The notes: generated by a model not told the origin, from the sequence alone. Shown: positions 38,975 through 42,151, counted from the first letter of the stretch. The stretch is 64,000 nt of DNA from Bdellovibrionales bacterium (GCA_050249195.1 JBFWQY010000020.1:30081-94080), one strand, 5' to 3'. Numbers and translations are program-made.

Positions 38975-41900
38975 TTAAAACTCAACCAGTTTCTTCTGGA
39001 TTGTTTCGCAACCTTCTTGGATTCTTCGCTTGTGATCGGGAGAGATGCACCACTTTTCTCCCAGGATACGTGTGGTGATGTGGCGTTGGTCCTCATTTCG
39101 TTCGATTTTGAGCCTGGAGACGAGTTCCGAGCGGAAATCCGAGATCACTTGCGCCATCGGGGTTGGACTCTCTCTCAGGTTCAGAACAAACGATCTTGAA
39201 TCTCTCACAATTCCCTTCTCATTGAGTTCGCCTTTGAATCTGGTGTTGAGTCCCTCTGCAAGGCCTTCGAAACAAGCCGCGATCGTGCTTGCCGCATCCG
39301 ATTTATAGGTTCTTGTCAGCGCGTGACGATGCCTTGCGAGGGTCACCGTATAGCCCTCCTGTTCCAGCTGGTTTTCGTTTTTAGTAGTAATCCTCTCCTC
39401 CGTCCGCCCGCGAACGACCTTCATGTGAGCGATCGCCTTTAAAATGGCGCCCTGGGGACTGTGGTCCGCCTCGACCTTCAGGTTGGTGTACTTTGCGTTG
39501 TGAGAGGAATTGGCCGTCCGATTCACCGCATAGGTGTTCACCGCTCCTTCGATGTGGGCCAATCCCGCCTCATGAATCTCCCAGGAGGAGCCGTCGTGTT
39601 TAAGACCCTTTTCGGCCATTGCGATGATCAGCTTATCAATCAGATCCCGCGCTCGCATCTCCTTTGAGCGCGCGTGAGCGGATGCAGTTTTCTTTCCGTC
39701 TTTTTTGGCGGGCACGTATTGTTCCAGTTTCTCGGCGATGATCTCTTCAGCCTTCTTCCGGTAATCGCCGACCTCAAATCCTTTCCGGACGTCTTCATGG
39801 AGTTTCTCGATCTGCGCGACAATCTTTAAAATCTTATCGGTATGCCTTAAGAATTCCACCCCTGATGCTTTGCCCATCTCTTCCAGTTTTTCCGCGACTT
39901 CTCCATTGATCAGATCGTCGAAATCGAGTTCCACCGCCTTGGTTCGGAGAATGGCGATAAGTTCTCCAATAGCCGGATTTTTGAAGACTTTGGCGGCGGC
40001 CTTTGTGGTCTTTCCGTCCTTGGATTTTCTAGCCGATTCTTTGGGCTTGCGCTGAATGGCTTTCTTTTCGATGGCAGCCCCCCTTTGCTTCAGATCCTCC
40101 AGGATCTTGAGGATTTCGGCCTTTCTTTCTTTATCGGAGCCATTCACCTGCACTTCCACCTTCTCCACCAGCTCGGTGAACCGGGTCGGTTCGCTACTGA
40201 TGATCAGAACCGCGTCTTTGTCGTTACCCATAAGTTCGAAGGAGTGTTTTTCCGAGCCGACGGTGAAGTCCTCCTTGTAAAGCAAGGAACCGACAAAGCC
40301 TTTGACCTTGGCGACACCTTCTTGAACTTTCTCGGCCACTTTGTAAGCCGCTTCGAGCACGGGCCCGCCCAGCTTGGCCACAAACTGAGCTAATTTTCCC
40401 ATCCCCTTATCCACAACCTTTTTCACCTTGAGCAGGATGGATTTGATTTTGCGCGGAAGTCCTCCTAATCCGATGAAGCCAGCGAGGAATGCGATGGCAA
40501 TGGGAATAAACTTGGCAAAAGTTCTTTCGATAAAGTTGGCGGCGGCGCCGACGGCACCGGCTGCGATCTCGATAATCGCCGCGAAAATGCCCTCGATAAT
40601 TTTTAAGGCGTTGTGAATCTGATCGATAAGCGCAAAGAGCACATCGACCACTGTTTTTATGGCCGAGAGAATGGCCGTCACCGGAAAGAGGAGGCCAAGG
40701 ACCTTTTCAACGGCAAGCGTGACGACTTTGACCACCAGATATTCGCTGACTTCGCTCACGATGGCGTCCACCACATCGGTCAGCATTTCAACCAGCTTTT
40801 CCTTGAGCTTCTCCCAAACACCCACGATCCCTTTATCGCGGTAGGCTTGGATGAGGTCGAAGTTCTCCTCCAACATCTGCATTTTTCTCTCAGCTCTGTC
40901 CTCGGCGCCGTCCTTGTCCTTTTCCTTCTTGGCGATTTCCGCCACCAAAATCTTGCGAAAATTCTCGTAGGAAACGCCGATCACGCCTATGGCAAAAAGC
41001 AGGATACTGCTCAAGCTGAGAGGCTTTTGCAATTGGTGGCCGTCTTCAGTCAGCCCGCCCAGCAGCCAGTCGATCACGCCACCGAGCAGATGCTTGAGAA
41101 TGTTCTGCAAAAACTGGGTGAAGCCGCGCTTAATGCCTTCAAAAACGTTCTTGATAAATTGGACCGGGCGCTGAATCAGTGCGGTCGCCACGACCTTTGC
41201 CTTATCGAGAAAAGCTCTCAGCCACTTGCCGGCCGGTGAAAGCAGAAACGCATCCAGGATCAGTTCGATCAGCTTGTAGCCGACATCCCCAAGGAATGTG
41301 AGAACCTTTCTAACTGGAACGTTCACAATCTCCCAGAAATCACTGATCGATTTCCCGACGCTTTGACTGAGGAAAGGAATCTCCAGCACACGCACCATCA
41401 GGTCTTCAACCATAGACCAGTTGATACCGAGCTCCTGAACACGGCCCGAGAACCACGAAAAGAATTTTTGAAAAATCCCAGACTGATCAAGAGCTTCAAA
41501 ATACTCGGCCCCTCCCGGAATGAAACTAAAGGCGAGTCGTATATATTCCTTCGGCTCAACCTTAACGGTCTCGCCGGTGAAGAAATCTTTGCCAACAAGG
41601 CCCATCAGCAACCGGTACGTGTCCTTTTTCCGGATAGGATCGATCACCAAGTCCATCGCCTTTTTCAAAGCGTAGTCGGCGATATCGGAGAACCAGCCCC
41701 GCTGAATCACGTCGGAGTTGTCGACTCGTTTATTCTGGCGAATATGTGCTTTCTCATGCTCGACGAGGTATTCCTGCTCGCCCGCCGATTTGTCCTGAAA
41801 CTCAGCGCTGAGATAGATATTGTTCTGCCAGGTGAAGGCGGTGGATTTCACCTTCTTGTTGAGGCGAAAAGAGGCCGGGTTACTGATAATTTTGACTTGG

Positions 41901-42151
41901 GAGGAAGACAAAAATCGGGGTGTGGCCTGTTCCAACTCCGCGCGCGGTACCGAGACATGAGGTTCGAAATGATCGATCCGTTTGGCGTATTCGACCGATT
42001 TGATCTCCTGCACGGAAGAGCGGCTATACAAGACGCGCTCGTTGGCATTGAGTTCTCTGGCGACGAAAACTCTCTCCTTGGACGCGTCCCTGTGTTCAGC
42101 CGACGGCCGCCGGCGGGCGGGGTCGGAGTCGGTCTTGGCTCCGGCTTGCAT
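38975..42151 (-). CDS. DUF4157 (zincin-like HExxH) domain protein, 1058 aa; candidate eCIS cargo/effector
   Basis: KSTAFTWQNNIYLSAEFQDKSAGEQEYLVEHEKAHIRQ matches the DUF4157 pattern, with HEKAH at 41744-41758. Hydrophobic helices occupy about aa 376-396 and 470-565. The C-terminal roughly 450 aa show no recognised domain. Confidence 0.75.
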   Translation of the reverse strand: MQAGAKTDSDPARRRPSAEHRDASKERVFVARELNANERVLYSRSSVQEIKSVEYAKRIDHFEPHVSVPRAELEQATPRFLSSSQVKIISNPASFRLNKKVKSTAFTWQNNIYLSAEFQDKSAGEQEYLVEHEKAHIRQNKRVDNSDVIQRGWFSDIADYALKKAMDLVIDPIRKKDTYRLLMGLVGKDFFTGETVKVEPKEYIRLAFSFIPGGAEYFEALDQSGIFQKFFSWFSGRVQELGINWSMVEDLMVRVLEIPFLSQSVGKSISDFWEIVNVPVRKVLTFLGDVGYKLIELILDAFLLSPAGKWLRAFLDKAKVVATALIQRPVQFIKNVFEGIKRGFTQFLQNILKHLLGGVIDWLLGGLTEDGHQLQKPLSLSSILLFAIGVIGVSYENFRKILVAEIAKKEKDKDGAEDRAERKMQMLEENFDLIQAYRDKGIVGVWEKLKEKLVEMLTDVVDAIVSEVSEYLVVKVVTLAVEKVLGLLFPVTAILSAIKTVVDVLFALIDQIHNALKIIEGIFAAIIEIAAGAVGAAANFIERTFAKFIPIAIAFLAGFIGLGGLPRKIKSILLKVKKVVDKGMGKLAQFVAKLGGPVLEAAYKVAEKVQEGVAKVKGFVGSLLYKEDFTVGSEKHSFELMGNDKDAVLIISSEPTRFTELVEKVEVQVNGSDKERKAEILKILEDLKQRGAAIEKKAIQRKPKESARKSKDGKTTKAAAKVFKNPAIGELIAILRTKAVELDFDDLINGEVAEKLEEMGKASGVEFLRHTDKILKIVAQIEKLHEDVRKGFEVGDYRKKAEEIIAEKLEQYVPAKKDGKKTASAHARSKEMRARDLIDKLIIAMAEKGLKHDGSSWEIHEAGLAHIEGAVNTYAVNRTANSSHNAKYTNLKVEADHSPQGAILKAIAHMKVVRGRTEERITTKNENQLEQEGYTVTLARHRHALTRTYKSDAASTIAACFEGLAEGLNTRFKGELNEKGIVRDSRSFVLNLRESPTPMAQVISDFRSELVSRLKIERNEDQRHITTRILGEKWCISPDHKRRIQEGCETIQKKLVEF

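Follow-up and report, generated by a model that had tools for sequence, protein, structure and literature searches.

A tape-measure-related DUF4157 protein closing a Bdellovibrionales contractile injection operon, a probable modular effector with a putative TseN-type DNase domain

Does the last gene of a contractile injection system (CIS) operon encode a part of the injection machine, or a protein that the machine delivers? This question was raised by a 64,000-nucleotide stretch of DNA from a Bdellovibrionales bacterium (GCA_050249195.1 JBFWQY010000020.1:30081-94080), called the window here, in which an open reading frame (ORF) of 1058 amino acids (aa) at 38975-42151 was taken as the target. 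The ORF begins with ATG and its stop codon is at 38975-38977; like every other feature of the protein and its operon it lies on the minus (-) strand, and positions are those of the window. A partial NCBI protein from a Bdellovibrionales metagenome-assembled genome (P0020) is 99% identical to the target and supports the start codon, because it begins at the same initiating Met. We consider it probable that the target is a modular CIS effector or cargo of the tape-measure-related DUF4157 class, and its C-terminal toxin is most likely a TseN-type DNase. The target is a further example of an effector class described from 2021 to 2026 and not a new kind of system. The domain layout of the target family, its conservation pattern, its association with CIS ATPases, its polymorphic C-termini and its tape-measure homology were observed, and they are described below.

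Domain layout and the helical core

The N-terminal leader (aa 1-60, 41972-42151) is charged, with 23 charged residues out of 60, and partly conserved in the orthologs P0001 and P0002. It is predicted to be disordered from the AlphaFold2 (AF2) local confidence score (pLDDT), which was below 50 at aa 1-21 and 38-51. The leader is a candidate loading sequence by analogy with Cgo1/2 of AlgoCIS, whose N-terminal domain (NTD) is needed for loading. No second cargo with a similar leader was found in the window.

The leader is followed by a zincin-like domain at aa 71-142 (41726-41941). Pfam PF13699, whose old name is DUF4157 and current name eCIS_core ("eCIS core domain", eCIS standing for extracellular CIS), matched these residues both in the full protein (E=3.9e-8, 33.8 bits against a gathering cut-off of 22) and in the subsequence (E=2.4e-9). 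The HEKAH motif was intact at aa 132-136 (41744-41758), exactly where a preliminary description of the locus had placed it within a DUF4157-type module. AF2 modelled the domain as a confident α/β fold with pLDDT values of 80-93.

The AF2 model of aa 1-720 was built from a 16-sequence alignment and had a mean pLDDT of 66 and a predicted template modelling score (pTM) of 0.30. Its layout comprised a low-confidence charged segment (aa 1-~55), the DUF4157 domain, unbroken helices over aa 154-624 and a β module at aa 626-657. The preliminary description had proposed a region of about 400 aa with long hydrophobic helices. Its helical nature stood, while its extent was revised to aa ~154-624 in AF2 and only two to three of its helices were membrane-competent.

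The first part of the helical region, aa 154-304 (41240-41692), was all-helical in AF2 and recurs as repeats in the longer relatives P0004, P0005, P0007 and P0008, as seen from second BLAST high-scoring segment pairs. This unit holds a pre-toxin-TG-like motif, DTYRLLMGLVGKDFFTGETV, at aa 177-196. PT-TG (PF14449) was rejected as the identity of the core module described next, since its match in P0008 falls on the helical repeat that lies upstream. Three Bacteroidota proteins of about 1800 aa (P0003, P0007 and P0008) contain the helical repeat in three to four copies and finish with an Endonuclease_NS_2 domain. A papain-like Cys region of NlpC/P60 type was visible by eye between their DUF4157 domain and the repeats, where Pfam reports none. 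These proteins look like multi-toxin versions of the target's scaffold.

The core module (aa 305-615, 40307-41239) has no Pfam model and was defined by an alignment of 13 sequences with 15 invariant columns (alignment A1). Searches of the core, and likewise of the C-terminal domain (CTD), against Pfam (up to E=5) and against NCBIfam brought no meaningful match, and a PDB search with the whole target as a single sequence gave nothing. The PHROG library connected the core with phage tape measures. The target itself matched four tape-measure families with E-values from 2.2e-7 (best) to 1e-3. When the 13 core sequences were scanned singly, six of the seven PHROG families matched were tape measures, a single family being matched by up to 8 of the 13 sequences. 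One core sequence also matched Pfam Tape_meas_lam_C.

Hydrophobicity was calculated as the Wimley-White octanol free energy (dG, in kcal/mol). Three helices of the core stood out, at aa 377-395 (40967-41023, dG −6.9), aa 484-502 (40646-40702, dG −4.7) and aa 548-566 (40454-40510, dG −7.0), the last following the Gly/Ala-rich motif IAAGAVGAAA. Stretches of 17 or more residues that lack all charged and strongly polar residues (D, E, K, R, H, Q and N) were limited to PLSLSSILLFAIGVIGVSY (aa 377-395) and FIPIAIAFLAGFIGLGGLP (aa 548-566). The long hydrophobic helices proposed earlier were confirmed for these two, and aa 484-502 was weaker. Across the family, the segment aligned to aa 484-502 had a dG below 0 in 99% of 74 members (median −3.9) and that aligned to aa 548-566 in 86% of members (median −3.8). 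The segment aligned to aa 377-395 was marginal (median −0.9), and control helices were not hydrophobic. The invariant core columns are most numerous at the aa 548-566 helix (A, G, A, E, I, A, L). Structure and transmembrane (TM) prediction had been proposed in the preliminary description; the octanol values gave two to three membrane-competent helices, and the AF2 models were of low confidence.

The core is followed by a four-stranded β module (aa 626-657, 40181-40276) with the pattern F..G..H.F/L......L.I.S.P. Its strands were placed by AF2 at aa 626-631, 634-641, 648-651 and 654-657, and the module is conserved in the alignment.

Variable C-termini and the putative DNase domain

Full-length relatives of the target were very rare. 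P0001 (50% identity) and P0002 (46%) both end syntenic CIS operons, each after a small ORF, and 11 further matches aligned to the middle of the target only. Word-index profile searches returned seven proteins with the core profile and four with the CTD profile, from an index of too low sensitivity for helical sequences as divergent as these. Core loci were recovered with one back-translated peptide pattern, IAAG[AN][VI]GAA, in species-representative genomes. At least 55 core loci were obtained from many phyla, including Acidobacteriota, Burkholderiales, Bacteroidota, Cyanobacteria, Desulfuromonadales, Planctomycetota, Deinococcus, Chloroflexota, Fibrobacterota, Verrucomicrobiota, among others. 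In nearly every listed core locus with enough flank, the gene directly upstream on the same strand encoded a homolog of the CIS AAA+ ATPase. The typical core-bearing ORF was 1000-1500 aa long. Among the matches listed, DUF4157 was present in 34 of 63 long core ORFs, and tandem core paralogs occurred in 13 of 50 loci.

Tandem core pairs right after the AAA+ ATPase were seen in L007, L009, L013, L018-L021, L027, L036, L045, L046, L051, L052 and L055. In most pairs one copy alone, usually the second, has a detectable DUF4157, which recalls Sle1/Sle2 and Cgo1/Cgo2.

The regions after the core were highly variable. Those of the 88 family proteins among the matches listed fell into 27 sequence clusters, and the first ~110 aa after the core, β module included, were common to 60 of the 88. 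A Pfam census of 69 post-core regions gave Endonuclease_NS_2 (19), HHH_3 (6), HHH (5) and Ntox15 (4), and more rarely GH-E (2), AHH (1), Ntox4 (1) and HHH_5 (1). All domains recognised by Pfam were nucleases, predicted toxin modules or DNA-binding motifs; one further relative showed a sub-threshold APOBEC-like match. Such a pairing of a constant delivery part with exchangeable toxins marks polymorphic toxins and speaks against the helical module being the toxin itself. The eCIS cargo proposed in the preliminary description gained support from the layout, which resembles that of Cgo1/Cgo2, from the core's position beside a CIS ATPase in at least 55 loci and from the 27 C-terminal clusters. One C-terminus shared by all related loci had been named there as an observation against cargo; this pattern held only for the two closest syntenic loci and not across the family.

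The conserved hydrophobic helices also allow another explanation, in which the helical core itself is the toxic activity, forming pores or disrupting membranes, and the C-terminus serves targeting or regulation. Two or three helices are membrane-competent (lowest dG −7 kcal/mol) and are conserved family-wide, the tape-measure-like Sle1 is membrane-localised and acts without an enzymatic domain, and full-length Tme is more toxic than its nuclease domain alone (PMC11126660). However, the core stays constant while the ends vary and include recognisable nucleases, which is the arrangement of a delivery module with exchangeable toxins; a packaging or translocation role is therefore more likely than pore formation. 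The C-terminal domain also keeps invariant His, Asp and Arg motifs across phyla, as is typical of a catalytic site, and Foldseek gave no significant match to a pore-forming toxin, with ClyA and XaxB appearing at E>2 only. We regard a toxic core as unlikely, and the pore formation suggested earlier for the hydrophobic hairpins was not upheld.

The effector reading places the toxic activity at the end of the protein. The target has a lineage-specific helical insertion or linker of about 170 aa (aa 690-859, 39575-40084) that, in the CTD-cluster alignment, was shared by no sequences other than the target, P0001 and P0002. It is followed by the putative toxin domain (aa 860-1058, 38978-39574), supported by alignments A3 and A4 and a PDB profile match. 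When aa 640-1058 were compared exhaustively by phmmer with 1.84 billion representatives, only two relatives were returned, so the CTD family was assembled from genome loci. Among the collected loci, the target's CTD type was present in about eight other species of different phyla; its carriers belong to Desulfuromonadales, Vicinamibacterales, Schlesneria, "Ca. Onstottus", a betaproteobacterium and the organism of P0006. The domain spans ~200 aa with the invariant motifs E-G..Y, (D/H)-H-x-P-Q..L and R-H...(R)-T, represented in the target by D896, H897, P899, Q900, R942, H943, R947 and T948. The His-rich patches noticed in the preliminary description, EADHSPQ (aa 894-900) and ARHRHALTRT (aa 939-948), coincide with these conserved motifs.

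The same description had found no nameable domain in the C-terminus, which was superseded here by a conserved family that is probably a remote relative of the TseN DNase. The CTD profile matched one PDB chain, 9j9w_B (TseN), with E=0.0032 and ~95 residues aligned, and hhalign of the CTD against TseN gave a probability of 72.5%, E=3e-5 and 24% identity. TseN is an antifungal and antibacterial DNase of Acidovorax citrulli delivered by a type VI secretion system (T6SS), and its DNase domain is described as a new family (PDB 9J9W; PMC12574953). H254 is the sole residue shown to be essential for its DNase activity and toxicity, and the crystal is that of the H254A mutant (PMC12574953). In both alignments the invariant H943 of the target aligned to the Ala in "DIAALGD" of 9j9w_B, at approximately residue 254-255 judged from chain length. 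With His restored at the aligned Ala, the hidden Markov model score rose from 20.0 to 27.3 bits (E=2.9e-5), and in a shuffle control none of 1961 composition-matched shuffles scored above 11.9 bits. There is moderate evidence from sequence homology that the target CTD is a TseN-type DNase, and this agrees with the nuclease bias of the whole core family. Pfam detected no Endonuclease_NS match in the target CTD. An HNH/ββα-Me nuclease was considered from the D-H...N-L...H pattern and dropped, as there was no HNH-type Pfam match and the spacing of ~45 aa is atypical.

Several observations weigh against the effector and DNase assignments. The TseN link is remote (E ~0.003) and only the ~95 residues that bear the motifs align; the correspondence of the aligned Ala to H254 was inferred from chain length and holds within one or two residues; and in the (N)L...RH motif the Asn of most relatives is replaced by Thr in the target. 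The AF2 models were poor, with a pTM of 0.30 for aa 1-720 and, for the CTD model built from eight sequences, a mean pLDDT of 59.6 and values below 50 in the motif segments. Foldseek with this low-confidence CTD model gave no match at E<1, and across PDB and BFVD it found no significant match to TseN, tape measures or anything else. Given the low-confidence models and the lack of significant Foldseek matches, fold-based assignment was abandoned; with structure predictions of such low confidence, it is remote homology at the sequence level that carries the DNase call. DUF4157 is dispensable for loading and toxicity in AlgoCIS (PMC8894135; 10.64898/2026.05.27.728243). No immunity gene was detectable beside the target or other genes of the same CTD type, which is unusual for an antibacterial DNase, although eCIS toxins are often found without one (Geller et al. 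2021, PMC8213781).

The operon and its neighbouring genes

The target is the 19th and final gene of a tight minus-strand CIS operon running from 58522 to 38975, and this final position is repeated in the syntenic loci L001-L003. That it closes the operon had been stated in the preliminary description and was confirmed, the next gene (38431-38946) being convergent and 28 nucleotides away. The operon is complete, with a structural set assigned by Pfam and PHROG matches. Its first group of genes encodes the AAA+ ATPase, a Pvc16-type cap, two sheaths and two gp19-type tubes. The tail-assembly group comprises a tail-assembly-chaperone-like ORF, a 269-aa ORF, a CIS_tube-type initiator and a gpD-like protein. 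The spike and baseplate group comprises a VgrG OB-fold protein, PAAR, gp25 and Afp11/12-like, baseplate-wedge-like proteins of 971 aa and 326 aa, and there are three unassigned ORFs of 282 aa, 286 aa and 202 aa. The ATPase (56711-58522) is Afp15-like, with Pfam AAA and winged-helix domain (WHD) matches, and is the presumed cargo loader; its homologs lie directly upstream of core proteins in most loci. The remaining structural genes occupy 42763-56714 and are syntenic in L001-L003. With 1058 aa the target exceeds every other ORF of the cluster, the runner-up having 971 aa, and it is the only ORF in the window that carries DUF4157, the core or the target-type CTD.

The 269-aa ORF (51544-52353) lies between the chaperone-like ORF and tube on one side and the tube initiator on the other. 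It is extremely basic, being rich in R, H, K, Q and N, and compared with its 206-aa counterpart in L001 only the C-terminal ~80 aa were conserved (40% identity, E=1e-11). It is a candidate for the true tape measure of this CIS, and by the AlgoCIS ratio it would imply a tube of ~60 nm. Between the two tube genes, the 126-aa ORF at 52947-53327 matched a phage tail assembly chaperone family (phrog_508, E=3.6e-10), and its C-terminal end carries a zinc-ribbon-like CPKC...H motif.

In afp/PVC-type operons, afp14 follows the fibre genes. The target likewise follows putative fibre genes, and it could itself be the CIS tape measure, that is, a structural length ruler, perhaps with a toxin as a bonus, and not dedicated cargo. 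Its core matches tape-measure families in PHROG and Pfam, no ORF of the cluster is larger, its conservation in both syntenic loci extends from end to end, and the sole other candidate, the 269-aa ORF, is short and atypical. Tme itself has been proposed for the tape-measure slot (PMC11126660). Against this, the canonical slot from tube to tube initiator is held here by the chaperone-like ORF and the 269-aa ORF with its conserved C-terminus, and the target is placed downstream of every baseplate and fibre gene. If each residue accounted for 0.229 nm, as in AlgoCIS, a ruler of 1058 aa would give a tube of ~240 nm. Tandem paralogs (13 of the 50 loci among the matches listed), the payload position after the ATPase and swappable nuclease ends are effector traits, and AlgoCIS has a separate tape measure (Alg14) in addition to its DUF4157 cargo. 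A ruler function thus appears improbable for the target, though somewhat less so than the toxic core considered above.

The 202-aa ORF (42151-42759) directly upstream is translationally coupled to the target by a TGATG overlap, which bears out the earlier observation that its stop codon is fused to the target start. No family was matched in Pfam, PHROG or NCBIfam. It showed 28% identity over ~70 aa to a 177-aa ORF of L001 (9405-9938), and no similarity was detectable to the L002 counterpart (9530-9994). A small ORF just upstream of the effector holds the identical position in the window, L001 and L002; it evolves very fast and is β-rich in its C-terminal half. No equivalent was present in the other loci that carry the target's CTD type. 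The adaptor or chaperone role suggested for it in the preliminary description found no backing, as the ORF is barely conserved in the syntenic loci and has no equivalent at the same-CTD loci. It could be a fibre tip or accessory protein, a chaperone, an adaptor or an immunity protein. No conserved neighbour that might be an immunity candidate was common to the loci with the target-type CTD. With no conserved neighbour and a barely conserved 202-aa ORF, a conserved immunity or adaptor gene was rejected.

The 286-aa ORF (42763-43623) has a coiled-coil C-terminus and shares homology with the C-terminal half of an L002 protein of 612 aa (7674-9512), so its N-terminal part appears to be exchangeable. 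It is compatible with a fibre or receptor-binding protein.

The convergent gene at 38431-38946, on the plus (+) strand beyond the 28-nucleotide gap, encodes a muramidase with GH108 and PG_binding_3 domains and a weak NCBIfam match to 'holin-associated N-acetylmuramidase'. It could serve lysis-mediated particle release.

The lack of a detected immunity gene and the presence of hydrophobic helices would also suit an anchor that tethers the CIS to the producer's own membrane, as adaptors of cytoplasmic or thylakoid-anchored CIS do, without being injected; membrane proteins are required by some CIS that stay bound to the cell. We think this very improbable. The N-terminus is disordered and charged, unlike a signal or anchor sequence, DUF4157 proteins of the same layout occur inside the lumen of the tube, polymorphic nuclease C-termini would make no sense in an anchor, and the adjacent GH108 muramidase agrees with release by lysis.

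Further from the operon, a plus-strand ORF of 1284 aa (34207-38061) has a Sec-signal-peptide-like N-terminus, MRALAGFLLLFGVAMPSFAVGEP, and no Pfam or NCBIfam match. Its product looks like a large orphan secreted protein beside the CIS locus. A hybrid histidine kinase/response regulator (58966-60762, +) is divergent from the first CIS gene, with a tetratricopeptide repeat (TPR) protein beyond it (60927-62381, -). Both are possible CIS regulators.

Proposed mode of action and comparison with known systems

In the effector reading, the charged disordered leader of ~60 aa would act as a system-specific loading sequence recognised by the operon's Afp15-like AAA+ ATPase, which, by analogy with AlgoCIS, may feed the unfolded target into the tube lumen. 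DUF4157 with its intact HExxH may contribute in an accessory way, for example to processing, refolding or contact with the spike. The tape-measure-derived helical module (aa 154-624) is probably extended in the lumen. After contraction the hydrophobic helices (aa ~484-566, plus 377-395 in the target) would insert into the target membrane, as suggested by phage tape measures and Tme/Sle1, and could then carry or release the C-terminal domain. This domain (aa 860-1058) would be the toxin, most likely a TseN-type DNase. From the sequence comparison, H943 of the R-H motif is its probable catalytic His, and D896-H897-x-P-Q may form a second conserved site.

The analysis resolves the long linker of DUF4157 eCIS toxins into a tape-measure-derived module with membrane-competent helices, which is encoded beside CIS ATPases in many phyla and nearly always bears a nuclease. 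Since this module has no Pfam model, its definition could help to annotate hundreds of "DUF4157-only" proteins. The module also suggests where CIS payloads could naturally be fused when they are engineered by exchanging the C-terminal domain. Should the homology hold, the TseN family would extend from the T6SS to eCIS, with (D/H)-H-x-P-Q and R-H as its conserved core residues. The definition of the widespread unannotated core and this possible family extension are the most useful by-products of the work.

A bolder proposal, which we offer tentatively and hold to be rather doubtful, is that the core (aa ~305-615), which includes two conserved hydrophobic helices and the IAAGAxGAAA motif, is a universal and self-contained tape-measure-derived device that takes interchangeable nucleases across target membranes in CIS of more than 10 phyla, with which, in the present case, a possibly predatory Bdellovibrionales-like bacterium would inject a TseN-family DNase. 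If true, the core would do for CIS what translocation domains do for colicins or for prePAAR/Rhs effectors of the T6SS, and the target DNase would belong to a family so far known from a single T6SS effector.

Phage tape measures (PHROGs 1272, 58, 4200, 305 and 1535, and the C-terminal region of lambda gpH) resemble the target in being long and helical with hydrophobic Gly/Ala-rich segments. They are carried in the tail tube and expelled on contraction. The target differs in its DUF4157 and putative toxin domains and in its gene position.

DUF4157 is a core or marker domain of eCIS located N-terminal to toxins, often with very long linkers in between (Geller et al. 2021, PMC8213781; Danov et al. 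2024, PMC11297309). Like many eCIS-associated toxins (EATs), the target has no immunity gene beside it (PMC8213781; PMC11297309). The studies of EATs treat the region between DUF4157 and toxin as a linker, whereas in the target it is a conserved tape-measure-related module with hydrophobic helices.

The proposed, very remote likeness to TseN lies in the profile match of ~95 residues, including D-H-x-P, in the invariant His that aligns at approximately H254, and in the place of both domains as toxin ends of contractile-injection effectors, putatively so in the target. In contrast, TseN is delivered by the T6SS through a FIX motif, VgrG and PAAR. It also has nucleolar localisation signals and the immunity protein TsiN, and the target has no recognisable nucleolar localisation signal or immunity gene.

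Cgo1 and Cgo2 of AlgoCIS consist of a disordered NTD, DUF4157 and a CTD and fill the tube lumen, Cgo2 being 1228 aa long (Xu et al. 2022, PMC8894135; 10.64898/2026.05.27.728243). Their loading needs the NTD and the AAA+ protein Alg15 (PMC8894135; 10.64898/2026.05.27.728243). The target has the same order of NTD (predicted to be disordered), DUF4157 and long C-terminal part and is likewise encoded in a CIS cluster; the CTD of Cgo1 differs in being a predicted metalloprotease.

The closest parallel by description is Tme (BN159_7576) of Streptomyces davawensis, which unites DUF4157 and predicted TM helices with homology to tape measures and an EndA-like endonuclease at the C-terminus and co-purifies with spike proteins (PMC11126660). 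"Tme-like" effectors have been proposed to be widespread (Nagakubo et al. 2024, PMC11126660), and Sle1/Sle2 extend the concept. Tme differs from the target in its length of 2247 aa, in being ~70% predicted disordered and in lying immediately upstream of the baseplate genes. The target locus also has a separate tape-measure candidate in the canonical slot (the chaperone-like ORF with the 269-aa ORF), and the target CTD is not of the EndA-like (DRGH / H-N-N) type. Compared by description, the two proteins share the N-terminal DUF4157, predicted TM helices in a long tape-measure-related helical region and the rank of largest ORF in the cluster, and in both the active part is a C-terminal nuclease, which is putative in the target. 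In the target's core family the largest CTD group is the EndA-like Endonuclease_NS_2 with the RGH motif (19 of 69). As this EndA-type end is the commonest in the family, the core family is in substance the Tme-like class.

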